Shown in pieces: positions 1,320 to 57,100 of a DNA stretch of 64,000 nucleotides (positions are counted from its first letter, which is position 1; every line of letters begins with the position of its first letter). The notes under the pieces were generated by a model. It ran no database searches, had not been told where the DNA came from, and saw only the letters and a program-made list of their open reading frames with translations. Position numbers and translations under genes: made by a program. The DNA is from Ascidiella aspersa (taxonomy: Eukaryota): NCBI GenBank assembly GCA_963924565.1, contig OZ004610.1, positions 9,052,001 through 9,116,000 of the forward strand, read 5' to 3'.

Positions 1320-4300
1320 TCAGCACAGGCGGATGACGTCACCGGTTCGTACCAGGTACTCGTCGTCCTGAAGTGAGCGCAGTGTTTCGTCGAACATTGC
1401 CTGTGTGATGATCTGGTCGGTCTGGCCGCGCCACCGGTCCAGCAGAAGCCGACAGCGGATGGTCGGGCCGCCCTTGGCGCCGCCTTGCGACCCACGACCC
1501 TTGTCCTGCTCGATTAGCTGCTTGAGGGCGCCCTTAAGCTCGTCCTGGCGCTTGCGAGCTGTGGCGCTCATGCCTAGATAACAAAAAAAACGCGAAATAT
1601 TAATAATTTGAGAAAATTACACCATATGTTTCTTTTATAGCGGATTTTGGTAAGGTTAAATTTGTGGTTGATGTGTCTGAGAGCAACCGAGTGCATTAAC
1701 TTAATGGGAAACATTGGGGGCACACAATACTCATTCCTTTTTGGGAGACGTTTTGTTGCTGTGTTTGCGTGTGCGCTAATGATAGACGAGATATTTTTTG
1801 GTTCGCTGTCTTTTTAGTTTTCTCGTGTTTTTGTGAGTTTGTTCGGAGCGGTCATTGCTATTAAACGCACAAAGTTAAAGTTCTTTCTTATTCAGAATAA
1901 ATAGCCTTTTTGCATATGGTTTTCGAGAAAAGGACCGTTGCCTGACAATTCGTTGTATATAATTAAATGTAATTCTTGTTCAAATTTTAGTTTAATTGGT
2001 TTCCAAAGAATTTGGCCATTTTATTCGAACTTAAGAAAACTAAAATAATCTAATTCTAAAATAATTTAAAAAAAAACAACTCAAAAGCTCTTATTCTAAT
2101 CTAAATTCAAAAAGCCAAAATAAACGTAATTGTTTCAGCCTGCTTACCGGTGGTCAAAATCGAGATGTCGACGATGCCAGTGCGCGGGTCGGTCGCCGAC
2201 TGCTTCAAAGCCTCGCGGTAAAGTCTCAGTGCTTCGCGCACGTCGGCACGTTCCACCTTTAGCGAGAGACGCGTCTTGGCGTGCGCCTCGGCCAGACGAA
2301 TAAGGGATTCCAGCTGACGAGGGTAGGCGGTCACGCCCCCGCCGCGCCCACTGCCACCGCCCTTGCGCATCTCCACGTACGCCTGTGTGGTAAAGGTTTT
2401 ATTTTTTGGTCGGTTGGTTGGTAGGTTGAAATTTGTGTATAAGCCGAAAATATGTCTCAACGTTTCTAAGGACGGAATGATCAGTTAATTGCGTGATGGC
2501 TGTCCACACCAAAATTTAAGTTATCACTTTGATTATAAAAGTGTCTTTACGTGGTGCAAACAAAAAATAAACCAACATTTATGGTAATTAGTTTGGTGTA
2601 AACGAAGTATAACACCAGAAGCGCGATTTATATCTATTGATATGTTGCCTGGTTGAGCTAACTATATTCATGCCCAATGCCCATTGTCTAATAAACTAGA
2701 AACTAAATGTAACCTCGAAAAAGGACTATTTTGTAGTTGCGTTTATTAAAACTTGACAATACAAGATTTTGTTCAAAAAAAAAAAAGGTTTTGTTACTTA
2801 TTTTTCTCTTTTTAATTATGTGGCCCGAAAAAAAAACATTTTTTTTGGACACATGTTGCTTTTGTCCGAATTATTTTATTTTTTTTTTTTGCCCAGGTTC
2901 TAAGGGGTGGTTTTTAGGGGGGCAAAACTGTCATTTTTTGTTAATTTTGGTTTTGAGCACTTTTCAGAGATAAAAGAAAGTAATAAAAATCCGATATATT
3001 TTCATTTTTTTTCTTATCAGCCCACAGTGTGGCGGCTTAAAATTGCTCAACTTCTATTTTCCAGGAGAAATTAATTGTTAAACAGAAACCTATCAAGGTA
3101 AACAACCTGTCGTCCAAACAAACACAAAATTACCTGAACAAGTTCCTGACCAGCCTCTTCGGTCAGTCGCGGCTTGATGGTCACCCTGGCGTAGGCGAGG
3201 TAATCCTTGAGCAACTCAGAGTCGAGAACGTCCATCTCAACTTCCTGGGCCGACCGGTGGTACAGCGACACCAGGTGACTGGCCAGGCGCCGGTCGTAGG
3301 CCTCGTCCTGAAATGTGTGAAAAAGATGAAGCGTTGGCTTATTGGCGTATGCAGTTCAATGGCTATTAAAAGTGAATGATGTTGATATGCTTTTTTCTGT
3401 TGGCTTATTTGAATTTCTCATAGTTTGGGAAAAATAAGGGGGGGGGGGGTACTATTGTAGAATCCAATACCATTGGCAGCACATTTTTGCTGCCTGTCTT
3501 TAGCTGCTCTATTGACCTTGTTATTATCATGATCAGAAATACCATGCACTTTATTAACTTTTTGAAATAGGCAATTGACATCGTCGCTTAAATATTTTAA
3601 TTTGAAATCCCTTTGCGTAATTTTTCCACGTCAAGGCAACAGAACGCGAAACGAAACAGTTGAAGGAATCGAAAGAGGCCTGTAACTATTCCAGGCCACA
3701 AAAAGAAGTCCAACGCGGTATGTATGTTACAAAAAAAGTGAAAACCATGTCTGGGCCACAAAATATAAGCCAGAAGTAGATTCCGATTCACAAAAGTTGC
3801 CCAAACCACCTAAAGGGACCCGGAACCATTACAGACCACAAATATACGCCCAAATCGGTATAGGTTACAAAAGAAATGGGCAAAACATGTCTGGGTCACA
3901 AAAACAAGCCGAAACTAGAATCCGATTCCTAAAATTTCCCAAACCAGTCTCCCAACCCACAAAAAGTTGGTTCACAAACATTCCCACGACTCACTAAAAC
4001 GCACCTGCGGGTCGAGCATAAGAAAGATGAGGTCGAAGCGCGACATGAGCGTGTGCGGCAGCATGATGTTCTCGACGATGGTCTTGCGCGGGTTCCACTG
4101 CGACTCGCACGGGTTGGCGGCGGCCAGCACCGAAGTACGAGCGTTCAGCTGGCAGATGATGCCCGCCTTGGCGATCGAGAGCGTCTGCTGCTCCATGACC
4201 TCGTGCAAAATCGACCTTTAGGCGGAAAACGGGGATGGATAGAGTGTTTAACGAATAAACACCAAAATGACACCCTGGATATAGTTTTCGGTGGAAATTT

Positions 4301-7300
4301 TTTTGACACTTTAGGACTTTATGGCACGGAGAAGAGATTAACCGGTATTTCATTTACAGACAATAGATTTTTTTGCACAGAAGCCGATATTTTTTTCATC
4401 AGGTGTGGATTGAAATAAGAAGGCCTAGAAGGATTTTAGACCTCGGTAAAGAAGAGAAATTCTGGTGCTCAAGTGGATGTTCCTTAGTCGACTTTAACTT
4501 TATTTTTTAGGTATTTTAAGACCGATTGCTACATTATAAGCCCTTTATATTATGGATGTTATATATTATAAACAGTTCTGATGAATTATGAAACACATTT
4601 CGAATCGACAATCAAACAATAGAGCTTACAATGCACAAACTTAAGCCAAGGTTTAAATTGCTAAAATATACTAATTTAACATATCGACAGATAATGTTTT
4701 CAATATGTGAGTTTAAAAAACACAAAGGCTTAACTAACATAAAAATGTGACTGTGGTGCGGCATAAACAAAATTGCCAAATTGGTTCTTTCTTTGGATTG
4801 GAATGAAGGAAACAAAGGAAACTAACTCTTACCTGGTGCTGTCGCTCATTTTGTCGAACTCGTCGATGCAGCAAACTCCGTTATCGGAAAGCACAAGTGC
4901 GCCCGGCTGCATCATCAGTTGCTTCGTTTCCGCTTCTTTTGTGATGTAGGCTGTCAATCCGACCGCACTGGAACCCTAAATAGAACATATTTTTGAAAAA
5001 AAATTGTTTTGTGTTTTAAAAAGTTTAAAAATGTCAATTTCGGGCTATAGGTTTTTTTTGAAATGCTGGTTTAATAAAAATTAACCATTTCAGGTTTTAA
5101 ACTAAAGCAAAGGATTACAAAATCAACTCTGTGCGGAAGACGAAAAAGGTAAAACTTTAAAGAATACAAAAACGCTGTTTAAAAACACTCTGCCCCATCG
5201 AGGGGAGGGTCAGGGTATTTTGTCAAACAGATAAGGGTCTTTTGTCAAGCACCGATCATCGACGCTCACAGCTTTACCTTTCCGTTTGTGTACTGTCCCC
5301 TGGGCGCCAGCTTTTCGTGCACATATCGCAACAGCTGGGACTTGCTGGTACCAGGGTCTCCGCACAAAAGCACGTGCATCTCCGACCTGAGGCCACCCTT
5401 CACGCCGCCTTTCGGGCCGGTCTTCTTCAGAACTTTCCTCGATCCGCCGAACAACTGGTGGAAATTCAGAGTCAACTGTCTATTAAAATTTAGCGAGAAA
5501 TCTTCACAAAGTTTCAAATTAGCCTAGTAAAGCAGTCTTCGGGTGATTACAACGAGATTAACCCGAGACAAGGGAGTTCGGCTTCCGACCATAGGGTACT
5601 ATCCTGTTACACTGGTATTTTGTTCTTTCGAGTGCTTTGGGTCAATGTTTTTCAACCTATAAGGCACCAAAGGTTGTCTTGAGTTTACTTTCCATATACT
5701 ACTCGAGTCGGGTGAGTTGACTTAATGCATTTAAGTTGACTTAATGCACTTAAGTCACTATTCTAAAATCGTGTTACGTGATTTGGAATTTGGTATAAAC
5801 TGGCTCGACTTGATTGAAGGTCATTTTGAAATATGATTTAAATTAAAATTAGGCAATTTATTTAAATGACTTAGCCTTACCTAGACTTTAGTCATTTAAA
5901 ATAACCTGTTAAAAATATTGAACGTTTAATACTCGCTAGCCAAAAAACTACCTTAGTAAAACCAAGATACCCGTAGAAAACGCACAATCATTAAATCAAG
6001 TCCAATACCTTAATATTTGTTTTCATTTTGCTCGGCGGCAACAATTTACGGGAAAATCGTGTGTTACGGCTTTCACCTGCAGGAGAATCCCTTTTTTGAT
6101 GTCGTCGTGCTCGTAGACGCTGGGAGCCACGGCGCGAGCCAAGCGATCGTAAACATCAGGATGTTGCGACAACTCGCGAATCTCCTCAATCCTTTCCTTA
6201 GAAAACTGAACCTGAACACGTACAAAATTGTGTTGCGGTTATTTAGTTAAAAACGATACAGATTAAGTTTAAAATAAAATAAAGTTTTAAGCTTAAGATG
6301 CGCACGCAGCGAAATGTTTTCTTCCATTAGTTGCGAAGAAATTGCACAGCAAAATATGAAAATTATATATTGAGTCACGATACAGCATAAGAAAATAAAT
6401 TAAAAGTTTTAACATTAAGATGCACGCAGCGAGATATTGTCCTCAACTGCTGTAATCGCTTCTTATATTGCGGCGGGTAAAAAATTCATAATCCGAAATA
6501 AAAAAATAAGCCCGGCAAAGGGTTTTAAAAACAGCCACATCCCAATCTCGATCCTAACCCAGCCTATCATTTTCTACGAAATTAAAAATGATTTAAATCC
6601 TTCCTCAAACACGGCGCCCGATAAGAGGGTTGCCGAAATAAAGGAACAGCCACAGCTGATTTCTAACCTGGCAGTCGTCGTCGTCGGCGCTCTCGTACAG
6701 CTGCTGGCGCTTGCCTTCCTTCTTCTGGAAATGGAGGACGTCGACGTGCGTCCGATACACCGACTTGACGTTACGCATGCGTGGGTTGGCACGCAACGGC
6801 TGCGCCCGATAGACACCCGTGACCACGATGCGATCTCCCGGCTGCACTGCGTCCACCAGGTCGCCGTAGGCGTGAAGGGCCACCGAGTGCGGCGTCTGGC
6901 CGGCCGGCATGTCGTCTGGCGCTTCTTGGAGCTTGACCAGTTGCCTGCGCAGAAATGAGAAGGGTTATAAAATTGGAAAAATGGACAGAGCGCAGGTTTC
7001 TGTTTGGTATGAGGGTTTTGGTGGGTCGGTGAATGTTAAAGCGCTTTAAAGCAAAAATTTGGCCTATTTTTTGAAGATGTAGCAAGATTTTGACGTGGCT
7101 AAAACACATGAGATAGGTTAAGGTTTTAATTTTTGCTTAAATAAAATATATTGCGTCTTTAAAAATGGGATAAAACATGGTAAAAATTTAACAAGGTACT
7201 GATTATATTGAAATCATACTACCAGTATTTACCTAAACGCGCAAATCTAACTTAGACTTTATTTTCAGATATTTTAAGTTGAAATCTAAACTTTTAATTC

Positions 7301-9528
7301 AACAAAAGCGGTCATTATTAGTTACTTATAAAGTTTTAATCGAGTGATCCAATAGTGCACAACCTTACTCTTTAAACTCACCTGTCTGTAAACAGCGATC
7401 TGTTGTGAATCAAGGACATCGAGTAGCTGGTTTTGCACTGGGCGCAAACGGTTGGTTCGGCGATGCGACCGCGCTCAATCTCCACAGATACTTCGTGATT
7501 GCAAACGTTGCAACGGAAGAAGCCTTCACGCATCTCAGGTATAAGCGACGACAAGCGAATGACCATCCCGCTGATGGTGATCAGCTGGTCGATGTCTTCC
7601 GGATTAAGGGATCTCATATTTTTCGTGCGCTCAGCGTTGAATGGCTTCACCTAAACATTTTTTCGACCCAAACAAATCAGTTTCATTAGATTCCACAATT
7701 CTACCGATGTTAAACAGTTGTCATAAGAAAAAAAATGCTTAACCAACTGATTTGAATTCTACTATATGTTTGTTTCAGTTGTTACTTTTTTGAAATACAA
7801 AAGTCAGTGTGTGATTGCTGATTTATTTAAAGAGCGATTAAGTGCAAATAAGAGATAAAACAATATTTAAGAAAAACATTAAATGAAGGGAATTTTTGTA
7901 ACAATTTTTACCTGTATTTGGTGAGACAAGGCTATGTCAGGAAATTTAGCAAAAAACATCTCATTAATTGCCATGTCAAAAGTTGGAATGACTTCCTGAA
8001 ATAAAAAAGGTAACAATCAGTAATCTACTTTTAAAACGAGTCATAAAACTATTTAACGCGGTATTGGTTCTATATATACAGTAAAAACAGCATAATATAT
8101 AACTTTATTTACAATTTACAAACCTGTGGATAACATATTAGCTGTCGGTACAAATCATTGTCATAGGCTTTTAAATGAGCGCAGTCAACATCAAAATATG
8201 GTTCTTCTGTTACACTAATCTCCTCCATTTTTCTCAAGTACACAGGTTCATTGACGTCCATTCCATCGACACCATCTTCATTCTCACCTTCAGGAACAAA
8301 CCTAGAGATAAAATACAAATGTAAAACTCTGTATAGTTATAGCAATACATTTTCAATAATTTTAAAGCATTTAAGGATAAATCATTTCAAGTAAATGTCA
8401 ATGAGCCACAAATATGCCTATACAAATAAAATAAACCATCCAAGATGCTAAAGCAGGGTATCCCACAGCCGCCAGTAAAATGTGTTTATTGGTTGAAAAT
8501 GGCAAAACTTTTAAATTCAAACAAAATGGGCTTAGGCACATAAAAATATTTGTATATTACTAAAAATACTTAAATATATTTTCTAGTTTAACAGAAATTG
8601 GACTAAATTGTAGATTATGGTGGCCCATAACACAAAAACCCTGCCTAGGCTTAGACCTGTTTCAACATTTCAATTTGCGAACTAGGTGAGCACAACACGT
8701 ATCTTTTTAGCAACTTTACATACCACAAACAAGGAAATACAAAATCACAAAAAACATTAGACGGGTTATTACCTATTGATAAAGTTTGAGAATTTGGTTT
8801 TGCAGTGACTGACAACCACATCTGTCCCCCAGATAACAAGTTGGCCAGCGGTGTCTGCCGGCATGAGAACTTCCTCATTTTCTTCCGGAATAGGTTCTGG
8901 TATGTTAGGACCTGATTGGTCCGAGTTCAGGTTAACTGTTCGCACACGGCTACTGCTTCCCAAATCTGGTCGCTGGCGAACCTAGAAAAAAAACAAGTAA
9001 AGGATCTAAATTTACTCCTAAATTTTACGAAGCTATTTAAAAGATTAAAGGTCAATAAGCTACACACCCCTTTCAACAAATAACTTTGTATAGCATATTG
9101 TAGTTAAAATCTTTTTTTAAACAATCAAACATAATATTTGACATTTAATAGTTTGAATATTCAATATAACAGACCAATCCTTTTTACAGACAGCTGGTTT
9201 TAAAGCACTGTATCAAAAAGATTGACTGGTAAAAAAGCTTATCAAACCTAAAACTTACCGGTGTTTGTGCACCTCTTGGAGTTTTACTAGGAGTAAGGCC
9301 TGAGCCACCAGGAGTCCTGGCACTTCCAGGTGTGCCATAAAACAATGGGGAGCTTAGGTCGATTTCACTGACATTCGCCGGAGTTTGCGGGGCCAGGATG
9401 GAGTCTGATGTGGCATCAAGCAAGCCTGTTTGATTGGCAGGAGTCGGTGGCATCATGGCGAGGTCACTGCTCGTATCCATGTCGTTACTTTGACGGCTTC
9501 TGCCACGACGGCGTCCAGGTGAAGACAT
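1320..9528 (-). CDS. MCM4: DNA replication licensing factor MCM4, 13 coding exons, 871 aa
   Basis: Exons in transcription order: 9528-9259, 8981-8773, 8301-8124, 7995-7912, 7650-7382, 6944-6668, 6211-6077, 5454-5278, 4975-4833, 4215-4005, 3307-3134, 2382-2148, 1573-1320. All introns are GT-AG with compatible phases; CDS totals 2616 nt. Motifs: S/TP-rich N-terminus, [17 protein letters not shown]4 zinc finger (CNVC...CAQC), Walker [12 protein letters not shown], Walker B IDEFDKM, arginine finger [25 protein letters not shown]. Confidence 0.98.
3743..3946. repeat. Degenerate ~140 bp tandem duplication in MCM4 intron 10
   Basis: catgtctggg.cacaaaa...aagcc...tagattccgattc...cccaaacca occurs twice, at about 3743 and 3883. 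Confidence 0.75.
5643..5895. mobile_element. Decayed MITE fragments in MCM4 intron 7
   Basis: caatgtttttcaacctata at 5643 is nearly the reverse complement of the hAT end at 16750-16770. A run of degenerate gactt/gactcgagtc repeats follows. Confidence 0.4.
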
Positions 9529-9755
9529 AATTGGTTGTACTTAAACCTTACACCGCAAAAAACTAAAGCACAAATGAAAGTGATGTTTAAATGGGGAAAA
9601 ACAACTATATATAAATTTATACAAAAAATAAAGACAGCAACACACAGAGTTCCTATTTGTTGAAAAGGAATTCTGTTTGACAATAGTTGACAAGATTTGT
9701 TATAACCTTTGTCGGTTAGGCAGTAAAGTACAAAAATATAACACTTAAGTACAAA

Positions 9756-11102
9756 CTAAGAACAGTTCGCAACAACCTCTTCCATATAAAGAGAAAGCTG
9801 ATCGCTAATTTTGTCTACATCATGCAACAGCAGCTTTTCGGTTTCCCGAAGCTTCTCCATTTTTTCATTGTGGTTTGAAATAATTTTCTCCTTCAGTGCT
9901 TTAGCACTTTCAATCTCTTTGATGCGACTTTTAATTTGAGTATTTTTGCTCTCTACCTTCGCAGAGAGGCCTGTTAGTTCACCTTCTAGTTCCAAAAGAT
10001 GTTGCTTGGCTGACTTAATCTGTTTTTCTCCCCGCAGTTTTAATCGACGGATTTGGTCTTTATTGGTTGCTATCTGCTGTGACAAGTTTTCGTTTTCCTT
10101 TCGCAGCTTAGCCATTGACAAAGACCTTGTTTCTGTCTCAAATTTTATCTTCATTAAATTATCCTTTGTCAGTTGAATGTGTTCAATTGAAGAGCAGTAT
10201 TCCTTTCGTAGCTGAATGTCATGTTGCCCACGTTCAACGGTTTGTTTCAGACGATCGATTTTTCTTTCAATTTCTCTGTGAAGCTCTTTGTTTTTGACAA
10301 AATTTTCCTTGGCAGTTTCTTTCTTTTGCAAAAGGACTTTTCGCTTTTCCAGCTGCTTGCCAGGACTGCTAACCACTTGATCCTGTAGGTTCTGCTTCTC
10401 TGTTAAGTACTTACTTAAATCTTCGTTGGCTGCAGTGAGCTCTTCATTGCACTTTGAAAGTTCCATTTTTGCGGCAGCCTTGTCCTGTTCCTTAAGCTTT
10501 TGCTCGTCCAAGATCTTTTGGAACTTACCCTTGCAAACATTCAGTTCCACAAGCTGATCAGCAAAGAGCGTTTCGTGTCGTCGCAAATAGTCATTAACAT
10601 CTCTCAGTGAGTTTTCGAGTTTGCTGTTCTCGTCAAGCAGGTCCTGTCGCTTCTGGAGAATTTCCACAGACTTGCTATTACAGGTCTCCCACTCGGTCAT
10701 AAAAAAGTCCCAGGAGCGAATGTAGTTGATAATGATGTTGAGGAAGTGATGGATTCTCTTCCATTTGGGATAAATCAGGTCGCGTCTTTCCATCCTGAGT
10801 TGAGGCACAGACCTGTTGAGCAAGAAAGGGACATTGATTGTCATCATTGTGGTCGGACCATACAGCTCCGGATTTACAAGCTCCCCAATAAGCAATGCCT
10901 GGCCCAGATTTTCTGTCTCAATACCCAGTTTCTGTAATATGCTTGTGCACAATTGAAGGACCAGAGCACTGCTTGGAGCTTTTAGCTGCTCAACAGTCAC
11001 ATGACAAATCGAGTCACCAAGAAGCCCACTCTGTATGGCTTGATTTATGTCGGGTTCTTCCAGCAGGGGTGCCTCATAGGTTAACTCTTTATCGCTGTAC
11101 AT
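9756..11102 (-). CDS. NUF2: Kinetochore protein Nuf2 (NDC80 complex), intronless, 448 aa
   Basis: Single ORF. The N-terminal CH-like domain contains DLIYPKWKRIHHFLNIIINYI (human NUF2 has [21 protein letters not shown]). A long coiled coil follows, broken by the characteristic VVSSP motif. Length is typical of Nuf2. Confidence 0.88.
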   Translation of the reverse strand: MYSDKELTYEAPLLEEPDINQAIQSGLLGDSICHVTVEQLKAPSSALVLQLCTSILQKLGIETENLGQALLIGELVNPELYGPTTMMTINVPFLLNRSVPQLRMERRDLIYPKWKRIHHFLNIIINYIRSWDFFMTEWETCNSKSVEILQKRQDLLDENSKLENSLRDVNDYLRRHETLFADQLVELNVCKGKFQKILDEQKLKEQDKAAAKMELSKCNEELTAANEDLSKYLTEKQNLQDQVVSSPGKQLEKRKVLLQKKETAKENFVKNKELHREIERKIDRLKQTVERGQHDIQLRKEYCSSIEHIQLTKDNLMKIKFETETRSLSMAKLRKENENLSQQIATNKDQIRRLKLRGEKQIKSAKQHLLELEGELTGLSAKVESKNTQIKSRIKEIESAKALKEKIISNHNEKMEKLRETEKLLLHDVDKISDQLSLYMEEVVANCS

Positions 11103-11570
11103 TATTGCTATTTGACTGTAATTCCTTGAAAATAGGAATCAAGACAAATAAATAGGTTAATAGTTTTAAAGTTTTAACTGCACCCCCAAAGCACATTGTG
11201 AAAGTAACATTGCTTGAAAAAAGTTATACACAAATCCCCAAATGTAAAAAATACGAAAAAAGCTATGTATGCCACAATATAGAACTTTTCAGGGAGAACA
11301 TTTCATTTGCAGATGAACTTAATGTAAAACAAAACAAAAATGCATTTTAACAGCTCAACAAGTTTTAAACAGATTTTTTTTAGAAACAAATGTCAATTAC
11401 CCTTTACAACCATGCAAAAAACTCAAAATCATGGAGAGAAATGCAACCGACAAAAAACTACAAATTAGGGAAATATTCGTGCTACCAATAAATAAGACTT
11501 TTTTTGGGAGAAATTAAAGTAATTAAAAAAAATACGACCAAAAGTTTTCTGCATATATATAAATTGAAAG

Positions 11571-12665
11571 CTATTTTTTTGTCACAAGCAAAACATCTTC
11601 ATGGCACAGTTTATGACTCAGGCCAACATGCTGTCCATGATATTTTGCACTCTGTCCCCAAATTTGGCCGTATTTAAAGTTAGCCACTAATGTTCTGTGA
11701 ATGGAGTGGCATGCATGTTCCACAGTGCTGCCAGACCTCAAAATAAGCCCATCTTCAAAGTCGGGTTTCTTTCCTGGTTTTTTAGTGTAGACAGTGATCA
11801 GGGCAAGGTACTTCCACATTACATCTTTAAAGTAGTCAAGGTTGAGGAGCATGTTGCAGCTGATCACAACACAGTGTGGTTGTCGAGCGATCCTATCTAC
11901 TTCCTCAATGGAAATTTGATCGATCTTGTTGTAAACGTAGATGCAAGGCATGTACTTGCGGTTTCCAACAATGACATCAATGAGTTCCTCTACAGTGTAG
12001 TCATCTCGAAAAACAAGGTCTGCATTGAAGATCTTATACTCATGCAGGATGAGGTTTATCATCCGTTCAGAAATTTTAGTCAGGGGGCATGTGGCAGTTA
12101 TCGAGATGCCACCACCTTTCTTTTCCTTGTAGTAAATATTTGGCCGTTTCTTGTTCAAACGGATGCCCACAGCTTCCAATTCCTTTGTTAAGAGTTCTTT
12201 CTGCACATCGCCCTTCAGTGCATCAAGCATCATCACCACCATGTCAGCAGTTCGTCCGACAGCGATCACCTGCCTTCCTCTTCCTTTTCCAGCAGCGGCT
12301 CCCTCTATAATCCCGGGCAAATCTAGAAGCTGGATATTTGCGCCATTGTGTTGGATAACTCCAGGGATGCAGGTTAAGGTTGTAAATTCATAGGATGCTG
12401 TAACACTGGTGGTTGAGGTCAGGGTGGAGAGCAGAGTCGATTTGCCAACAGATGGAAAGCCGATAAGTGCCACCCGGGCATCTCCAGATTTCATGACATC
12501 AAATCCTTCCCCTTTCGCCGATGTTGTCTTTGAACCCTCCAAAAGCTGAGCTCTGTATCTTGCAAGTTTGGCCTTTAGCAAACCCAAATGATACTCGGTG
12601 GCTTTGTTTTTCTGGGTCCTTGCAATCTCCTTTTCCACCTCAGAAATTTTTTCAAGAATCCCCAT
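11571..12665 (-). CDS. DRG2: Developmentally regulated GTP-binding protein 2, intronless, 364 aa
   Basis: True start is MGILEKISEVEKEIARTQKNKATEYHLGLLKAKLA (ATG at 12665; the ORF track starts at an upstream TTG). Contains G1 GFPSVGKS, YEFTT, DLPG, NKID and a C-terminal TGS domain. MGILEKI, ATEYHLG and KSGDARVAL favour DRG2 over DRG1. Confidence 0.96.
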   Translation of the reverse strand: MGILEKISEVEKEIARTQKNKATEYHLGLLKAKLARYRAQLLEGSKTTSAKGEGFDVMKSGDARVALIGFPSVGKSTLLSTLTSTTSVTASYEFTTLTCIPGVIQHNGANIQLLDLPGIIEGAAAGKGRGRQVIAVGRTADMVVMMLDALKGDVQKELLTKELEAVGIRLNKKRPNIYYKEKKGGGISITATCPLTKISERMINLILHEYKIFNADLVFRDDYTVEELIDVIVGNRKYMPCIYVYNKIDQISIEEVDRIARQPHCVVISCNMLLNLDYFKDVMWKYLALITVYTKKPGKKPDFEDGLILRSGSTVEHACHSIHRTLVANFKYGQIWGQSAKYHGQHVGLSHKLCHEDVLLVTKK

Positions 12666-13778
12666 TTTAATTGTTCCCTTATTCAATATCAAAGAGCAGA
12701 CAACCTAATTGAAATATCTGTAATATAATGAACTTGTTTTTAAACTTATGTTGATGATTTAATCAAAAGCAAAGACACAAATGACAAATAGCATAAAAAT
12801 AAACAAATGACAATATCAGTAAAATAATTTTCATAGGAACTCCAAATCAATTACAATGCAACTTCATTCATCAAATTTAAATAAAACCATAATTATCTGA
12901 CAAATGATGTGCCTAGTGGAAGCTCATTCTACTTAAAACAATTTTAGTACAATGTCAAAAACAGACTGTGCATTCCATACCACAGTGTGGGAACAAATGT
13001 TGAAATGATATAATTTTAGCTTAACCAAGAAATTCTGTACGCCAAAAGCAAACATAATGAATTACATACTTGGGGATTGTATAGTGGTAAAAAAATCACA
13101 AGAGCGCAAAAACAGATGAAAATAGATCAAAATTGGTCAATGGAAGTGACAATAATCTTATATATTTTTCTTAAAAGGTGGAATCATCTCTTTAAAGCAA
13201 ACTTATATAACATTTGGGTATAGACTAAATAGAAAAAGTACCTGGTTGGTCAACCATTAAAAATAGCAAAAACAAGACTGCAATAAATGGTGCACAGCAT
13301 TTTTTAACTACATACAATAACACACTTTATAAGATATCTTTCAAATTAAAGAATCTTTCTTATGTAAATAGTGCAAAACAAATAATTCTGAATTGCACAT
13401 CAGGTAATTAGTTTTATTACTGTTTAAAGCATAGAGAGCTTAAAAATGCAATTTGCCATATTTGTAGATTGATGTATATTATATGTCTAAGAGTTTTACA
13501 AATAAAAAAAATCCAAAACAATTTTTGTTAAATGAAATGAACAAAGAATTTTGTTAAACATAGAAGATTAAACAAAAAAATATTTTAGTTGTGCATGGAC
13601 AAACCTATTTTTAAAAATTTAACTGCAATATTTTTTGTTTTAAAATTTTCTTATTACACAAAGAATGTTGACCATAAAAGTATAATTCCAATTAATTAGT
13701 TATTACTAAATCACAATTACTTTATAAAACACTTTTTGGTCTGATTTGATAAACAAAGCTATTTGTTTGTGATAATTT

Positions 13779-14345
13779 TTATAACTCTGATTTCTTCTTC
13801 TTCTGTTTTTTCTTGCCAGAAGTGGATTTTTTTGTGTTTTTCTTTTTACTTGGATGACCTTTGCCGTTGTAGTCTTTACCCTCTATCGTAACAGATTCGC
13901 ATCTTTCTTGTTGAATTAAAAAGTCTTTGATCTCGTATGCATAGGAACCGTCGTTTATTTTAATGAGGACGCGATTTGCACTGACGACAAACCTGGTCAA
14001 CTCAATGTTGGCGTTGAACAGCATAGATTGCCAGAGTGATGTGATTTCTTCAGTTTCCTTCTCCGTTGGATCTCCTGACACAGTAACAAACATCATGAGT
14101 GTTTTATGCCTCTTTGACATCTTTAGCATGCCTTCAGGATCGCTAGGGTCGATTTTTGACATGTCAATCGGCTCAGCCTTTCGTAAATGTTCCGGCAAGT
14201 CTTCGTCTTCCACTTCGCCTTCCTCCGTCCACTGTTCATCGAGTTTGTAAATGTCAACGTCGGAAAAGTCTTTTGGATCCTTTCGTTTCTTTGCAGCAAC
14301 CAGGACAGTAACAGTTAAAAGTAGGAATAATTTTGTGATTTGCAT
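13779..14345 (-). CDS. MESD: LRP/LDLR chaperone MESD (boca), intronless CDS, 188 aa
   Basis: ATG at 14345 gives a signal peptide (MQITKLFLLLTVTVLVAA). It is followed by KDPKDFSDVDIYKLDEQW, LPEHLR, KMSKRHKTLMMFVTVSGDPTEKETEEITSLWQ and DGSYAYEIKDFL, then a Lys-rich tail and the KDEL-like ER-retention signal KSEL. Confidence 0.95.
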   Translation of the reverse strand: MQITKLFLLLTVTVLVAAKKRKDPKDFSDVDIYKLDEQWTEEGEVEDEDLPEHLRKAEPIDMSKIDPSDPEGMLKMSKRHKTLMMFVTVSGDPTEKETEEITSLWQSMLFNANIELTRFVVSANRVLIKINDGSYAYEIKDFLIQQERCESVTIEGKDYNGKGHPSKKKNTKKSTSGKKKQKKKKSEL

Positions 14346-15359
14346 CCTTATCCTATCAACAGTTATATAGTGTACATAGGGTGTGTCTACAAACAATAAC
14401 CAATTGGTATTTTGGCTTAATTGTAAGAGAAATTACACAAGATAAGGGCGCTGGTCTAGAATCCTTCCACAACAACATTATTTGGGTTAGGGTGCGGGTT
14501 AGCGTTTAGGTAAGTTACGCAATATTATTAAATAATAATGCTTTGCTCACCCTCACCCTAATAGTGTGAGTTGCTTTGATAATTGTTTCAGCCCCATGGT
14601 AGGATTCTAGGCCAGTCATATAGGCCTTAGAAAGTTCACATGGCGATGGCATCACAGAGACATGTAACTACAATAATTTCACAAATTATACAGATTAACA
14701 TTTTGCATGTTTCACTCTTTGTCAAAATTGTTTGTAACAACCAATCCAGCATATTTGTTTTTTAATTATATGTAATACGAATTTAGGTTTAGGAAGACAG
14801 ATTAGATAAATACTTTCTCCATTTTTCACTAACCATACGGCTACGCTGATCTGTTGCTTATATAGCATTGCTGCTTTATAGTCTGAACAAGTGCGCCAGA
14901 TCGTTTTTACCTAACCATGCAGTGGAAAGTTAGGACGAGTTCGATACAGTTTTCTGGGTTATATATATACGCTAAATACCTGTTTGCAATATTTTACTTG
15001 TTAGCGTTAGCGAGATAACGTTTATTACAGGAACAGGGTACGTCAACTGAATTGGATAACTTAGTTCTCAACTTCATTGTTTTTACGACTTAGCTCAGCT
15101 AAACGCTGACGTTTTGATGCGATTCAGTATTTTACTACCACATGCTGGCATTCGTAATTTCACTAATAACGACACATAGTTACTGCAAAAATATTACAAA
15201 CTTTGCACTGAATAAAAATAACTAGGACTAAAATATTAGTAATTTGAGCTATACTAGGCAAATTATAATAATTGTGAATATTATTGTGGTATTCAGCAAA
15301 TCAATTTTATTATGTCGTATACTGTACGATTCGCTCATCTTGCTTAAGACAAAATTCAG

Positions 15360-15419
15360 TTTCGCGCCAATCGTCCGTGTTTGCCGCGAAACCCATACAC
15401 GTGACAATTTTTAACCAAT
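15360..15419 (-). promoter_or_regulatory. E2F/CCAAT cell-cycle promoter
   Basis: TTTCGCGC at 15360-15367 overlaps CCAAT at 15367-15371. A second, inverted E2F-type site (TTTCGCGGC on minus) is at 15383-15391, with another CCAAT near 15415. The patch is CpG-retaining and lies about 1 kb upstream of the MESD ATG. Confidence 0.7.
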
Positions 15420-15453
15420 ACTTGCAATGATAAAGACCTACATGTATTACAAT

Positions 15454-15998
15454 CAAGGAGTCGAACCGTTTGATTTTTCCGGTTCAGGTTCGGTTCGGGT
15501 TCAAGGATTTTTTCGGAATCCGGTTCAGAGGGATTTAAAAGTTCCGGTTCAGCTCCGGTTCAACCATCGTTATTTTAAAACCGGTTCATAAAGTTCCGGT
15601 TCAGATACAATATAATTTGCGTTAAATCTCAAAATGTGGGTCGATAAATGTAGAGAATAATCTTTGAATTGTAAGTCGTTTAATCTAAGTTACGTGACAA
15701 AAAACAGTATAAAAAATAAACGATTTTTTCATTCAATATTCATATTTTTTCATAAAATTTCGAACATGGCGTAACTTGACTCTGTAAAATAGAAGTTGTG
15801 ACGTCATACAGGAGCGAACCGCTTTTATTTACAGGTTCGGGTTCGGTTAAGCTTCAGGTACTTTCAAATTGTTCGGTTCAGTTCCGGTTCGGCTCCTTAC
15901 AATCTTATAAAATCCGGTTCAGGTTCGGTTACGGTTCGGAAAAAATTGACCCAAAACCGGGTCATAACGTTCCGGTTCGTCTCCGGTTCGACTCCCTG
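15454..15998. mobile_element. Non-autonomous hAT-type MITE, 545 bp
   Basis: 15-bp TIRs CAAGGAGTCGAACCG and CGGTTCGACTCCCTG (1 mismatch). Perfect 8-bp TSD ATTACAAT at 15446-15453 and 15999-16006. Many subterminal CGGTTC repeats at both ends. Confidence 0.93.
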
Positions 15999-16154
15999 AT
16001 TACAATCCCAGTATCACTAATAAACGGCTCACATAAGTCAAAAGAACCGTAACAGCAGTTTTGTTGCGATATATTAAAATTTATTTTGTTGTTTGATAGT
16101 AATACTGCATAGCGACGGCAATTTTTTATAATAGTATTTAACAAATATGCTTGG

Positions 16155-16770
16155 TTTAGACCTGCAACCCTTAAACTATGTGCCATTAAGTGGTTCTCGA
16201 GTGTGCCGTGAACCGTTCTATAGGCTAACTTTGGAAAACAATCCACTTTTATGTCAAAGGGATGTTTAAGTCAGTAAGGGGCGATTTGTCAAGTTATGAG
16301 TAACATTATATTGTTATGTAAATAGTCTTCCGCATTTTTGTTTCTTAGTGCAAGCAAGAAAGGCTTTACACTGGTCTTGACTTTTGCCTCCATAAATTTA
16401 AAATCGGTAAGCTTGCCCTTCAAAGTTCAAACTATACACTGAATTTCAATATATTTGATTTCGTAATTATGTTTTAATAAACTTGCCAGTGTTTATCAAG
16501 TTTTTTGCGGTAACCCGAGTGCTAAACGTAAATATAACAGTGATGCGATCTAGTTCTCGTAAAGCAAAAGAAAAATAGCGTACCGGTACAAATTTTGAAT
16601 TTAATTATGAACCATCTTTTCGTATTTTTTCAACAGCTTTCTGAAATTTAAAGAAATCCTGCTCTGGATCGATCTTGTAAATCTAACAATATGAACTACT
16701 GCAGTAGGCGACCCACCAAATTATATAGCAGGTCAATTTTGGGTCACGACCTATAGGTTGAAAAACACTG
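16155..16770. mobile_element. Degenerate hAT/Charlie-like MITE remnant(s)
   Basis: Right end gggtcacgacctataggttgaaaaacactg is a typical Charlie terminus; degenerate agtggttctc near 16189. Left boundary and TSD not resolved. Confidence 0.45.
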
Positions 16771-51100: not shown

Positions 51101-54100
51101 TTTCCACCTTTAGTCCAATCCTGTCAAAATAAATCCAAGGTTCCCTTCAGACCTTTAACTGATGCTCGTGTCGTTTGGGTCGCTTTTTATCACGCTACGC
51201 AAGCTAACTAAACTTTGTTTCAGGCACAGTTGTGAACATCAAAATTGTTGTTACCCGGGAACAGTAATTTTTGACATATCCTTTAATGTGCTTTTTACCG
51301 AAATAAAGGGGGCAGTAGTTTCCTGATGACATCTATATAATATAGGGTATAACTTTCAACTTTTAGGGCCTCAAGTACATAAAATGTCACTGCTAGCTTT
51401 ATATAATACAAAAGAACGGACACGTCGATAAACGTCTTAGATAACATATTCACAGTATTGTTCTAATTGCTTGCAATCAAAATTCGATGTTTAGATTGTA
51501 AGATGGATATGGCAATATTAGAGAAGGCTTCTCGTGGCTATTACCCTTGAAGGTGAACGCTGGAAGTAAAAAAGGTTTTAGTCGGTGCTCGGACTTACAC
51601 ATGTACGTACGGGCGCCGAGTTCGCCCTGGAGATTCCTCGATTTGTCAATAAGAGCACACACTATTGATTCCCAGGCGACCGACAGTGCACTCTCGACGA
51701 GCATGTTTTTACACTTGGGCACCGAGGAAGCAGCTTGTCTGACCTGCCTCGATAATTATCGGCTGCTTTGCGTTTGACGAAATCTACCCTTTACAGTCGG
51801 ACGGCCCACAAGTTCGTTACAATATCACGAAGGCCTTGTAAAAGCCTTAGCTTGCGGGTGCTTGTACGTAAATGCCTTACCCTTTTAATAGTGTTAAAGA
51901 TGCGCTGATTGTACGTTGAAGAGTCGTAATATTGGACAAAAGATTGTGTTTTTAATAAACGGCTTTTTGCACATCAGCGACTGAAATCAGTCACTTTTGT
52001 ATTCACGCTGGTCAACGTCGACGCCCCTCGATCAAATGGAGCACTACACATCCTTTAAAATGACACATCTTTTGAAATTCAAGAAAATTGTCAAAAGGTC
52101 AAAATTTCACATTCTTAGTGATACTTAATGTGCGGCCGATGATTGTGGGAAGAACAAACGAACCGAAAACCCGCAGATCCCCCGACGTGCGTGGTTTAGG
52201 CATACAAAGCTCCAGCATATGTCCACGAGCAGAGAGCCTTAGTTCATTCACCAGGAAGGTCATACTCTGGCCACCAAAAGAGCTTCTCGAAAATTTCCGA
52301 ACTGTCGCTCAACTTTAGAATCACTTGCTGATCAAGACGTATTTTGACGCGCATATTGATTTCGCTCGGGTTCGCAGCAGGGCAATCTTCTCTGTTGCTG
52401 TCAATTAAAACCTAGAAGATAGAGCAGAGCGAGCTTGTAGCCACAATAGGAGGAACCATATTTCTGCCGACCTGCCTTTAACTCCCCAGCGGCCTGCGCC
52501 CTTTCCAAATATACCTTTTTGGCGGGTGTAAGTTTGCGCTTGGTTACTACATTTTTTGGCGGTGCTTTGACTTGCCAAGTTCGCCAGACGTCGTAAAAAC
52601 AGCAGCGATCCGTTCCCACCAGGGCGCGAACTCACCAGGGGTCGGGACTCTGTCGTCACCGACTAGTTGGTGGGAATTCTTGGAAAATTAAAATCAGGCC
52701 GAAAAAGTCGCGAACGACAGCGATTTACTACACTCTTTGTTTTTCTATAAGAAAATAGAATTTTTTCCAGAACGCAAAATTTTATGTTTAAAGTCTGTCG
52801 TCAACGACGAGTTGGTTAGAATTTTTGGAAAATAAAAATAAAGCAACAAATCAAAATCTGAATTGATTCACGCTGTTTAGTTTTTCATAAGAAAATATAA
52901 ATTTTTCAAAAACGCAAAATTTGGTAAATTTTATGTTTAAAGTCTGTGGTCACCGACTTGTTGGTTAGATTTCTTAAAAAATAAAAAATAAAGCAACAAA
53001 TCTAAAGCTAAATAGATCGACGCTGTATAGTCTCCCATAAGAAAATGGAATTGTTACAAAACTGCAGTATTTGTGGATTATACGCTATAGGTGCTTGGGG
53101 CCGCCTTTCTCAAGAAGTTCAAACGCGTTTGCTTTTTTCAATGGACTTCACTCGCGTTTCCGTAGGCGGCCACGCGTTTTACGTCACATCCCTCTGCAAC
53201 TGTATAAACTTGAGTGGCGGCTGATGCACTGCGACACACGTCGAGAATTTATTTTCACCGCATGAAAGTTTAACGGAGAAGGTTCCGATTTGGTCTACGG
53301 TTATTTTGTGTTGCCGTTTAAGCCCACAGTGTTGTGTGTGTATTGCGTCAGGTGACGTGGGCTAGGCGTGCGTTAAAAAGCTTGCAGGTGTGACTCACAA
53401 CGCCGTGCAACTGGGTGACAAAGAATCCTGGATCTTTCAATCTAGCAATTGCGCAGCAGTTATGCACTGTCGGTCACCGTTTTAGATTTATGCTTTCTTG
53501 AGCGAACCGCCTATGCACAGAACTGTAGGATCACAAGCTAAATACGAATGCTTTCAGAGTTGCAGAGGTTGTCGAAGGGGCCAGGTTATGTCGAATACAT
53601 GCAACGCGTGGGCTGAGGTTTTTTGCGAACACAAAATGTATTACCTTGTTTGACAGGAGACCTAAAATGAGAAAAGGTTAGCTGTAAGTTTCTTCGGCCG
53701 TATAGGTTGCTGGAAATATCTGGCTCTGGTGTGTGCTTTATCGTGTTATTTTTTACAGTTGAACGCTCTTACTGTACAGGTGACTTCGTTAAGCCGGATT
53801 TTAAAACTATAGGTTCTTGTCTATGTGAAGCGAATCGGCTAAAGTTTGTCCTTCCCTTTTTGCGTTGTTTCCGATTATTGGACTTTTTGAAAGGCAGTCA
53901 CTGTGAATAAGTCTTCGCCACCCGAAAATCAGTTGAAACATGGCGGCGAAGAAAGCGACGAGGCTGGTCGCGCGTTCCTTTGACGACGGCGATTCGCACG
54001 TCAATCAACTGGAGGCCGAGGTGCTGGGCCTTCGCAGCCGCTTCGACAAGCTGGAGCATCAGACCGAGATACGACTGGGCAACATCGAGACCGCCATTTC

Positions 54101-57100
54101 CCAGCTACAGAAATCCACCGACGACAGCAGCAGCATTGGCGGCGTTGAAAAAACGGCCAGTTCTGGACTAGGCTTGCGCAAACAGGCCAGCGTCGCCTCG
54201 TCAACCGGTTCCTTCCGGGTGAATCTGGAATCAGTGAGCGACGCGGGCGAATTGACCGAGACCGACAGTGTGTCGCTGACTTCCAACGACCTGGCGCCGC
54301 CGGACAGCGCCTTCCTGGTGGTGACCGGCATCGAAATGGACAAGTCAGGTTCCGAGGACCAGTATGAGACTGAAAAGGCGCTTAAACTCTTCCTGCGCGA
54401 ATCGCTTGGCATGAGCTGGGAAGAGATCCGTTCCATGGCGATCATCGACTGCTGGCGGCTGCACGCAAGTGGAGAAACGAAGCGCAAAGGCCACGGCAAG
54501 GGAAGCAGCAGTGTCCCGATCGTCGTGCGTTTCGAGACGCTGAGCGACGCAGAGCTGGTGAAGTCACGAGCTCCGGTCGCAAAGATCCAGGGCTTTAACA
54601 TCACCGAGTTGCCGCCGCCGTACCATCAGCAGCAGCGCGGGTCGCTGAACACCCTTCAATCGCAAGAAAGCCCAGAACGCAACAAGCGAATCAAGAAGCT
54701 GAAGTCTGAGGGAATGGGGTTAGTTCGGCTCTGCTCAGTCGGGCGCCAGGGCCGCATTAGTATAGCATTAGGTTTGTGTTAAGGGACACCTGGCTTTGAG
54801 GGCTTCGTTGGTTCCCATTTTTATTTAAATGTTGACGACAATTCAAAAGAACCTTATTGTAGGTTCTCTCAGCTAATTTTACCGCTGTTGTAACCACAAC
54901 ATACCGGGCTAATTTTGCTCTTATTAAGATTGGATAATGTCGCTTATTTAGTGGCCGTACAACCGGTCTGTGACACTAAAATAATTTAAAGAAATTGCTT
55001 CTTTCTGAGTCCACGCCGATTTGGGACACGGTTGCCGTTATGGTTTTATGGTCGGAATAGACAATATAAGGACGCGCTGGTTGTGTGTGTTTGCCTGAGT
55101 CATCTGTGTCGCAACTTCTCGATTTGCCACGCTAGGAACGGCCTAGGTCGCCATGCTATCTTCCTCTCAAAATAAAGCACACAACAGCCTTATGACGATG
55201 TACGTATGTTGTTTACATTTGGCCCGGTGCGCAACGCCAAACAAATTCCACCTGTGAGCCAACGCTCCCGGCCTGCATTTAGTTAAGTTACTAGAAAGCA
55301 GCGTCCAGTGACGTTTAATGAATTGTGCCGGCGTAAACAAGCATCTCGGTTCGCTTCCGTTATGCCCGGTGCGTCATTCTACGTGTTGTTAGACACCCGA
55401 AGATCTTAAAAACCCGCGCTTGCGTTGGTGCGATTTGTTTTACACTGTCAAACAAAACCGTTAATATATATAATATATCGTTGACAACCTGAAAAATGTG
55501 TCGCAATTCTGTATAGAAACTCATATTCCTATAGGGCGGTGGTTTTATACATTTTAAATTGTTAAGAAGACTGACCCTTGTAATTTTGTATTGTTAAACG
55601 ATATTTGCAAAAAACAACACAAAAGATCACTACAACAATATTTTAATTAACCGAAACCAAAATAAAACAACTTTTTGGAGGTTAATGAGATAGTGTAATG
55701 CCTTTGCTTAAGTTATTTTGTCAATTTTTAATTGATTTGTTAAAAAAAAGGAACTATTTCGGTTTCGTTTATTTAAATCTTAAGAATTCCTGAAAAAAAT
55801 ATGACGCGCTTTGTTTTATTATTTTGAGCTGAAACAGTCGAACGCATTATACCTCAAACGATGATTTATTTGTAAAATATTACATCATTGGGAGCATGAA
55901 GTATATGCTCTGGTCAACAGCTACATGTTTTCTGCTCGGCTGAGCGCCAAGCACGCTGGGGAAGGTTATGATGTCACATCACGTCGCCATGTCTATTACG
56001 TCATGGGCGAAAATTGCCGCTACGAAGCCACTATTATTGCGCAGCGTCGTCACCCCACAATAAAACAAAACATTTAAATGTCATTAGGCCTTTGATTAAA
56101 TATCATTCGCCTCAGTTGCGTCATATATGTAACAATTTTCGGTAACAAAAAAGGGGCAAAAAAAAAAACAGACTTGTATTGCCCTGGTACAGTGGTTCTC
56201 AACCGGGGTGCCGCACTCTGGGGTTCCATTTTTAACGCCCAAGGGTGCCCAGAGATATTTCAAATTCTCTAGGATTTCAATTTTTGCTCTATTTGTAAGC
56301 TTCTTTATACAATTTTTTGTTCCGATAAAAATGCCAAAAATTAAAACGTTTGTTTCAACCTTGTTGCACAGTTGATGTTTTAATCTCTTTATTGTAACGT
56401 TACAGTTAACCACTCATGTGAACAAGGTTGCCGTGAGCTATTTATAATTTCTGTAGGGTGCCGCAAGCCAAAAAAGGTTGCGAAACACTGCCCTAGTATT
56501 TCGTTTTGTCATGTTAATAATTACCCTTAATACGCTTTAAACCGAAGCACACATCCACAGTACTAATTTCAATTTCATATCAAAAGATGACTGTCTCATA
56601 ACGCTCTGCGGCCGATATCACTGTTTGCAAACACGACAAAAATTCGTTTTTTTTTTCGCACAGGAGCGACATCTTGCGAAGACTTTCACCTGACCGCAGG
56701 AGGTCGCCAAAGACCAGCACAGAGAATCTGAGTGAAACTGCCAGTAAGTCTCGTCTGCTGCAGATTTGCCAAGCAATATGATAATTGATAAGGATATTTC
56801 AATATATTCACCTATAATATACCAATAGTTTTGATTAGGGATGTTCGATAATATCGGCCTGCATCCGATGCCCGATACCAAGTGCTCCGATACTAAGAGT
56901 GGTATTATTGCGAAATAAAGTTGTGCTTTATCCTTGGTTTTCTATCTTAATGTTTTAATTGTAAATGAAAGGTAAGTAATCTTTATACCGTTAAAGGAAT
57001 TTTTACCTAATTACCACGGAGAAAACTGTCTTTTTAGATTCGATTTTAGAAATTTCGCCTTTTGGACCCAAGTGATACCCCGTACTTTTTGTTTCAAATG

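Follow-up and report, generated by a model that had tools for sequence, protein, structure and literature searches.

The closest described systems are the spliced leader (SL) operons of the ascidian Ciona. In the part of the published survey that is available, 1,310 operons are reported, 36 of them with four genes, and 38% of operon genes are single-exon, rising to 60% among the 5'-most genes, a figure whose significance is called unclear (Satou 2008, PMC2760879); the same part contains no word starting with 'retro'. The Ciona leader has 16 nt (given in Table 1 of the source), and the available text states that the upstream message receives its poly(A) tail on the G of the acceptor that follows it (Satou 2006, PMC1488885). 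AATAAA is reported, likewise in partial text, to be missing near the upstream 3' ends in 16 of 18 Ciona operons. Two other systems bear on the origin of such units: orphan retrogenes in Ciona, that is, retroduplication with loss of the parent (Kim et al. 2014, as cited in the accessible part of PMC5408686), and SL-tagged retrogenes, which are established in dinoflagellates according to the available text (PMC12014239). In titles and abstract openings of the tunicate literature, including few subscription papers, we found neither SL-tagged retrocopies nor insertion into an outron as an origin of operons. Here we describe a 64,000-nt window of the Ascidiella aspersa genome (OZ004610.1:9,052,001-9,116,000, assembly GCA_963924565.1; all coordinates are window positions unless another sequence is named), in which MESD, DRG2, NUF2 and MCM4 very probably form one Ciona-type, SL-resolved operon. 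An original prediction, made from the sequence alone, had proposed such an operon and had derived its first three genes from processed retrocopies that landed one after another in the outron of MCM4. The enrichment of single-exon genes in SL operons to which it appealed is an architecture published as common in Ciona.

The gene structures at the locus (Table 1) agreed with that proposal. The coding sequences (CDSs) of MESD, DRG2 and NUF2 were predicted to be uninterrupted, as is borne out by their minus-strand open reading frames (ORFs) and Pfam matches, and MCM4 was predicted to keep 12 introns, which the model of 13 exons joined across GT..AG introns reproduces. The spliced length of MCM4 was matched by a contig from sequencing run X3 at three of three anchors from exon 5 to exon 13 (constant offset 72). 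The vertebrate orthologues of MESD, DRG2 and NUF2 are multi-exon. The stop-to-ATG gaps measured 1113 bp (MESD-DRG2), 468 bp (DRG2-NUF2) and 227 bp (NUF2-MCM4), with 26-29% GC in the measured stretches, in line with the AT-rich gaps of 0.2-1.1 kb described at the outset; they look like an upstream 3' untranslated region (UTR) followed by a downstream 5'UTR, with no spacer between them. The closest named relatives of these genes were ascidian, at 93% for DRG2 (Phallusia) and 72% for MESD (Ciona savignyi), and in a DRG2 tree the window sequence was sister to Phallusia (support 97/95). A word-seeded homologue search with NUF2 gave no match, and an exhaustive search gave 12 instead. The Phallusia and Ciona NUF2 orthologues (P0253, P0275) carry the public annotation optineurin, yet match Pfam Nuf2 above cut-off.

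Transcription was assessed with four sequencing runs. X4 is RNA, of which about 6/100 was read (depth 4-14), and X1 and X2 are DNA-like; X3 has no RNA label on record and was treated as RNA-derived because its contigs are spliced across MCM4 introns. In X4, each bin between 7032 and 14185 contained reads, and their first mates were confined to one (minus) strand throughout. Depth was zero over 14697-15207 in both X4 and X3, a stretch that the DNA runs cover. Among the five listed X3 records over the three intronless genes, 3 of 10 ends carry non-genomic letters, at 9563 (5 letters), 12717 (6) and 14388 (1). All three lie at acceptor AGs 34-52 nt 5' of ATGs, and contigs of X1 and X2 run through these places without a break; the other X3 breaks (12245, 12313, 13419) are present in X2 as well. 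The original prediction had placed acceptors just before each ATG. Acceptor AGs do exist for MESD, DRG2 and MCM4, but those marked by X3 contigs stand 41, 52 and 34 nt upstream, respectively, not immediately before the ATG. For NUF2, nine candidate AGs lie within 260 nt and none was singled out. Neighbouring transcripts abut within less than 100 bp: MESD and DRG2 meet at 12717-12715, and NUF2 stops at 9563, which leaves 34 nt to the ATG of MCM4. AATAAA was absent within 40 nt of the MESD and NUF2 3' ends, and an ATTAAA stands 45 nt before 12718. From these ends we infer SL addition at 14387, 12718 and 9563, and poly(A) would, by analogy with Ciona, be added on the acceptor G of the upstream message. 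A cis-spliced 5' intron of MESD, with donor-like sites at 14556 and 14550, was disfavoured: either donor would give ..GG before the exon, and the contig instead agrees with the genome at the A of this AG.

The genome also holds the corresponding leader genes. The 16-nt Ciona leader followed by a donor GT occurs at 358 genomic places (reversed-pattern control, 0), and most of the 100 listed copies sit in a 584-bp tandem array on sequence C3. The SL resolution proposed for the unit is supported by these genes, by the one-strand RNA and by the contig breaks at acceptors. The array itself (C3 5.2-5.45 Mb, L017) is interrupted every few copies by inserts of 7.6-8.4 kb, and an Rfam scan of 10 SL loci returned no snoRNA or SL family match.

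Base composition suggests a single start for the unit. A CpG-depleted domain, likely methylated in the germline, runs without interruption through the three intronless genes and into MCM4 (Table 1). The observed/expected CpG ratio (o/e) was 0.58 over 7700-15000 vs 1.17 and 1.18 on the flanks, and 0.11-0.43 in the gap stretches; GC content at third codon positions (GC3) was 0.33-0.48 inside the domain vs 0.62-0.92 from MCM4 exon 5 on. At 15100-15440 the CpG o/e reached 1.62, and the sole CpG-rich stretch with E2F-like sites for the unit lies near 15.36 kb, where 3 of the 25 window matches to TTTSSCGS, which we take to be an E2F-like motif, fall within 32 bp. MCM genes are under E2F control. Judged from this pattern, the operon promoter likely lies near 15.36 kb, and the earlier expectation of one start near 15.3 kb gains support, as a promoter region near 15.3-15.4 kb, from the CpG pattern together with the gap in RNA depth. 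Promoters inside the gaps are unlikely, because the gaps are CpG-depleted and, according to the available part of a Ciona study, methylation there tracks whole transcription units and leaves short promoters free (PMC3827831). This bears on the alternative that there is no single operon, only packed genes that are each merely trans-spliced and are served, in some of the gaps at least, by short promoters of their own. Such an arrangement would find room in the 468-bp and 1113-bp gaps, which could hold outrons of the Ciona mean of 438 bp (PMC4691747, partial text), and it gains from the DRG2/NUF2 boundary, which is not pinned, and from the dependence of the single start on a CpG proxy. Set against the CpG depletion of the gaps and the match of upstream 3' ends to downstream acceptors at two boundaries, we regard it as improbable.

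The operon reading implies a putative outron of about 1 kb before MESD, which exceeds the 438-bp mean of Ciona outrons and lies inside the range of up to 2 kb used in the same partly available source (PMC4691747). The unit is like the Ciona operons in its 16-nt SL, abutting cistrons, upstream 3' ends that would fall on the acceptor G, lack of AATAAA, and single-exon upstream genes of unrelated functions, and four-gene cases exist there too. It differs in species and gene set, the Ascidiella block being absent from Ciona; in its three stacked intronless cistrons; in a first gene that also seems to be trans-spliced, behind its outron; and in a CpG-depleted domain that ends inside the last gene. 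This switch within MCM4 falls at 7650-7750, exons 1-4 being CpG-depleted with GC3 of 0.33-0.45 and exons 5-13 CpG-rich with GC3 of 0.62-0.92. A half-methylated MCM4 would be unusual, because Ciona genes are reported, in the text available, to be nearly all either methylated throughout or not at all.

Table 1 Features of the MESD-DRG2-NUF2-MCM4 locus in window coordinates.
Feature	Position	Strand	Description
MESD CDS	13779-14345	minus	Uninterrupted ORF, 188 aa, single copy; Pfam Mesd match
DRG2 CDS	11571-12665	minus	Uninterrupted ORF, 364 aa, single copy; Pfam MMR_HSR1/TGS match
NUF2 CDS	9756-11102	minus	Uninterrupted ORF, 448 aa, single copy, divergent; Pfam Nuf2 match
MCM4	9528-1320	minus	13 exons, 12 GT..AG introns, 871 aa, without internal stop
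MCM4 exons 1-7	9528-9259, 8981-8773, 8301-8124, 7995-7912, 7650-7382, 6944-6668, 6211-6077	minus	
MCM4 exons 8-13	5454-5278, 4975-4833, 4215-4005, 3307-3134, 2382-2148, 1573-1320	minus	
Likely MESD trans-splice acceptor AG	14387-14388	minus	Start of X3 record 22 (14388, 1 non-genomic letter); no break here in X1 and X2 contigs
MESD 3'UTR	12718-13778	minus	Ends at likely DRG2 acceptor AG 12719-12718; X3 breaks here between record 21 (to 12717, plus 6 non-genomic letters) and record 20 (from 12715)
DRG2 3'UTR / NUF2 5'UTR	11103-11570	minus	Continuous RNA depth, with X3 record 18 extending from 11333 into NUF2
NUF2 3'UTR	9563-9755	minus	Ends on G of likely MCM4 acceptor AG 9564-9563, as does X3 record 18 (5 non-genomic letters); no break here in X1 record 5 or X2 record 11
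Putative outron	14389-15350	minus	About 1 kb, small repeat near 14450-14615; gap in RNA depth, covered by DNA runs
CpG-depleted domain	7750-14700		Continuous over MESD, DRG2, NUF2, all gaps and MCM4 exons 1-4
E2F-like 8-mer cluster (TTTSSCGS)	15360-15391		3 of 25 window matches within 32 bp; CpG-rich, single-copy depth (X1 record 8)
SL-like 11-mer	12678-12688	minus	12 nt before DRG2 ATG; p=0.046 (shuffles), 0.022 (AT-rich background); not significant after four tests
Miniature inverted-repeat transposable element (MITE; non-autonomous DNA transposon)	15454-15998		Terminal inverted repeats, 8-bp target duplication; inverted arms 15439-15468/15984-16013

Comparison with relatives suggests how the unit was assembled. 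Among the best 80 of 441 loci in a metagenome scan were two overlapping contigs (L020, L021) of one other ascidian, which the DRG2 tree placed as sister to Phallusia plus the window (93/92). On L021, DRG2 and NUF2 are both intronless and are followed by MCM4 exons 1-3, all with the order and strand seen in the window, with gaps of 4.1 kb (DRG2-NUF2) and 3.2 kb (NUF2-MCM4), and MESD was absent from the 9.4 kb upstream of its DRG2. In Ciona, Clavelina and Styela, judging by sequence lengths, MESD, DRG2 and NUF2 are each on a separate sequence, and Ciona gene IDs place MCM4 on Chr1, DRG2 on Chr12 and MESD on Chr14 (rows of the PMC10951915 supplement). By these lengths and IDs the position of all three genes is new relative to the outgroups. 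As read from contigs and gene IDs, gene order is nested across ascidians, with the outermost gene least conserved. The successive insertion originally proposed holds up to this extent: the nested order agrees with genes having been added 5' of the existing ones, and we consider stepwise 5' growth fairly probable. Loss of introns in place, within an ancient four-gene cluster, could draw on the shared three-gene order of L021, but in Ciona, Clavelina and Styela these genes are not linked to one another, and MCM4 retains all 12 introns, so that this alternative is very improbable. The DRG2-NUF2 gap of L021 (9292-12400) also contains an inverted repeat pair of about 640 bp at 90% identity. Next to Ciona MCM4 lies KY21.Chr1.1122, labelled NINL or without a human homologue; this gene could be a divergent Ciona NUF2, named in none of these tables, an identity that is unverified.

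Within the Ascidiella aspersa genome, MESD, NUF2 and a tested MCM4 exon gave one match each. The other strong matches of DRG2 formed an intron-split paralogue on sequence C1 (42-86% identity per exon), likely DRG1. An exon-by-exon search, which very short divergent exons could escape, found no intron-bearing parent of MESD, DRG2 or NUF2, and the idea that the copies have replaced their parents is supported accordingly. In being intronless and single-copy, with no intron-bearing parent left, the three genes are like the orphan retrogenes of Ciona. They differ in that intron loss here seems older than arrival at the locus, and the genes may therefore have moved twice.

Evidence that messages are copied into this genome came from leaders outside the SL genes. 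The leader not followed by G was found at 208 dispersed genomic sites vs 2 for controls. Among the first 100 listed sites, 82 carry the full 16-mer, 83 belong to seven repeat families and 17 are singletons. Several of these sites start ORFs that resemble the starts of what we take to be long interspersed nuclear elements (LINEs), with Baculo_FP_2nd matches in 2 of 10 fragments; target duplications appeared in 2 of 38 matches of the repeat families, both chance-like. At one site (L139:2160-2516, sequence C2, minus strand) exons 1-2 of pyruvate kinase follow the leader, with the junction falling precisely on the acceptor AG of the parent. These exons are 92% and 95% identical to the parent on sequence C8 (L199/L200), and an intron of about 370 nt has been removed. 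By sequence, this is a proven case of a spliced, SL-tagged, 3'-truncated processed pseudogene, and it follows that host messages carrying the trans-spliced leader are indeed reinserted as DNA copies here. The likeness to the SL retrogenes of dinoflagellates lies in the 208 DNA copies starting with the leader, one of them a proven spliced host copy; the differences are that the sites tagged here mostly belong to repeat families or look like LINE starts and that the three operon genes bear no significant SL relic. At two SL-tagged singletons, L186 (C4) and L138 (C2), the leader is followed by ORF pieces with weak Pfam PBD and COG6_N matches; they may be additional copies of host genes, or insertions close to exons. 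Mobile elements capped by the SL in a chordate could deserve a study of their own.

Several observations weigh against an origin of the unit by retroposition into the MCM4 outron, or against parts of the transcript argument. Contig ends mark RNA ends only indirectly, X4 at its depth of 4-14 has no listed start or end sites, and no SL-bearing loose ends were found among the rows listed, where repeats dominate. A host-gene copy is proven for only one of the 100 SL-tagged sites, the pyruvate kinase pseudogene, and that copy is truncated after about 340 nt. A search for an SL relic before the four ATGs gave a marginal signal for DRG2 alone (p 0.046 with shuffles; 0.24-0.94 for the others). No poly(A) remnants or target duplications of retrocopies were found in 9000-16300, and the gaps contain no A-run longer than 8; the retrocopies originally proposed in the MCM4 outron would thus have left no surviving hallmark at the locus. 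Decay of such hallmarks is to be expected, because NUF2 is only 39% identical between the window and L021. The gaps of L021 are about 10-fold longer, so that MESD could sit past the contig end, and the step that puts NUF2 first leans on the unverified Ciona neighbour KY21.Chr1.1122. Full-length DRG2 and NUF2 ORFs were called on European Nucleotide Archive (ENA) contigs, 0.47-2.5 Mb long, whose sequences cluster with Clavelina on the aplousobranch side; one of these calls has an upstream read-through start and another is a frameshifted copy, the pattern expected of an unspliced-ORF caller. Judging by these calls on long contigs, both genes appear intronless already in this more distant branch, and their introns were probably lost before the move to the present locus. 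The original prediction had named intronless orthologues at unrelated loci as the finding that would speak against it, and the apparently intronless DRG2 and NUF2 of this branch come near to that case. Finally, the first MCM4 exons of L021 and the preceding 1.5 kb show no CpG depletion (o/e 0.77-1.25), the CpG-depleted domain of that contig stopping about 1.5 kb before MCM4, and from this composition MCM4 may there have retained its own promoter.

The last two points lead to the main rival, relocation at the DNA level with read-through capture. Under it, a methylated DRG2-NUF2 unit, already intronless, came to sit upstream of an MCM4 with its own promoter, after which the gap shrank, the MCM4 promoter was lost and MCM4 turned into a downstream cistron. 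In its favour are the CpG-rich stretch before MCM4 and the 3.2-kb gap of L021, the prior intronlessness, the lack of retro-hallmarks and the split composition of MCM4, in which exons 5-13 are unmethylated-like and exons 1-4 have the look of recent erosion (GC3 of exon 2, 0.45 vs 0.65 in L021). It fits less well with the position of the sole E2F-like cluster in front of the entire unit, where an inherited MCM4 promoter would be expected, and with the finding that no E2F-like 8-mer precedes MCM4 on L021. The recruited genes, moreover, are all intronless, and the RNA route is demonstrably active in this genome. We judge DNA-level relocation unlikely.

As the best explanation overall we favour, with moderate confidence, one Ciona-type operon with its promoter near 15.36 kb, cut by the SL and grown stepwise at its 5' end by compact genes. 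A single promoter would drive all four genes, SL trans-splicing would yield separate mRNAs, and NUF2 would have arrived first, then DRG2, then MESD. A compact gene inserted 5' of an existing acceptor would have its promoter and 3' end supplied by the host unit. Because such an insert requires no promoter or poly(A) signal of its own, the unit would grow at the 5' end and the single-exon state of the 5' cistrons would be explained. The vehicle is the most uncertain part of this explanation. Entry of RNA copies into the MCM4 outron, which we rate at slightly under an even chance, would, in the version we prefer, have occurred by re-retroposition of mRNAs from genes that had mostly shed their introns beforehand. 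More speculative still is a retroposition ratchet, in which SL-bearing mRNAs would, like those of dinoflagellates, be reverse-transcribed with their leader and those landing in an outron would be expressed at once from the host promoter, ending at the host acceptor; three rounds (NUF2, DRG2, MESD) would have occurred here, and the 208 SL-tagged inserts would be the raw supply.

Taken by itself, the locus is one more ascidian operon, real and of an ordinary type, with an origin story that is plausible and indirectly supported but stays a proposal at this locus; its value lies in a dated series, the nested gene order alongside SL-tagged retrocopies in the same genome. The excess of single-exon 5' cistrons becomes testable genome-wide, the youngest genes being expected outermost and carrying SL relics. 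If the ratchet is true, it would explain why the 5'-most Ciona operon genes are mostly single-exon, a question left open in the available part of Satou 2008 (PMC2760879), and trans-splicing with retroposition would be a general route for the origin of animal operons and the relocation of essential genes.

Two further features were present in the window. The MITE (Table 1), which we presume to be hAT-like, lies directly upstream of the promoter region and has very high repeat depth in the DNA runs, as befits a high-copy element. At 53937-54782 (plus strand) there is an open frame of 281 aa that begins with a coiled coil and matches no Pfam entry; by eye it resembles what we take to be a LINE ORF1-derived protein.

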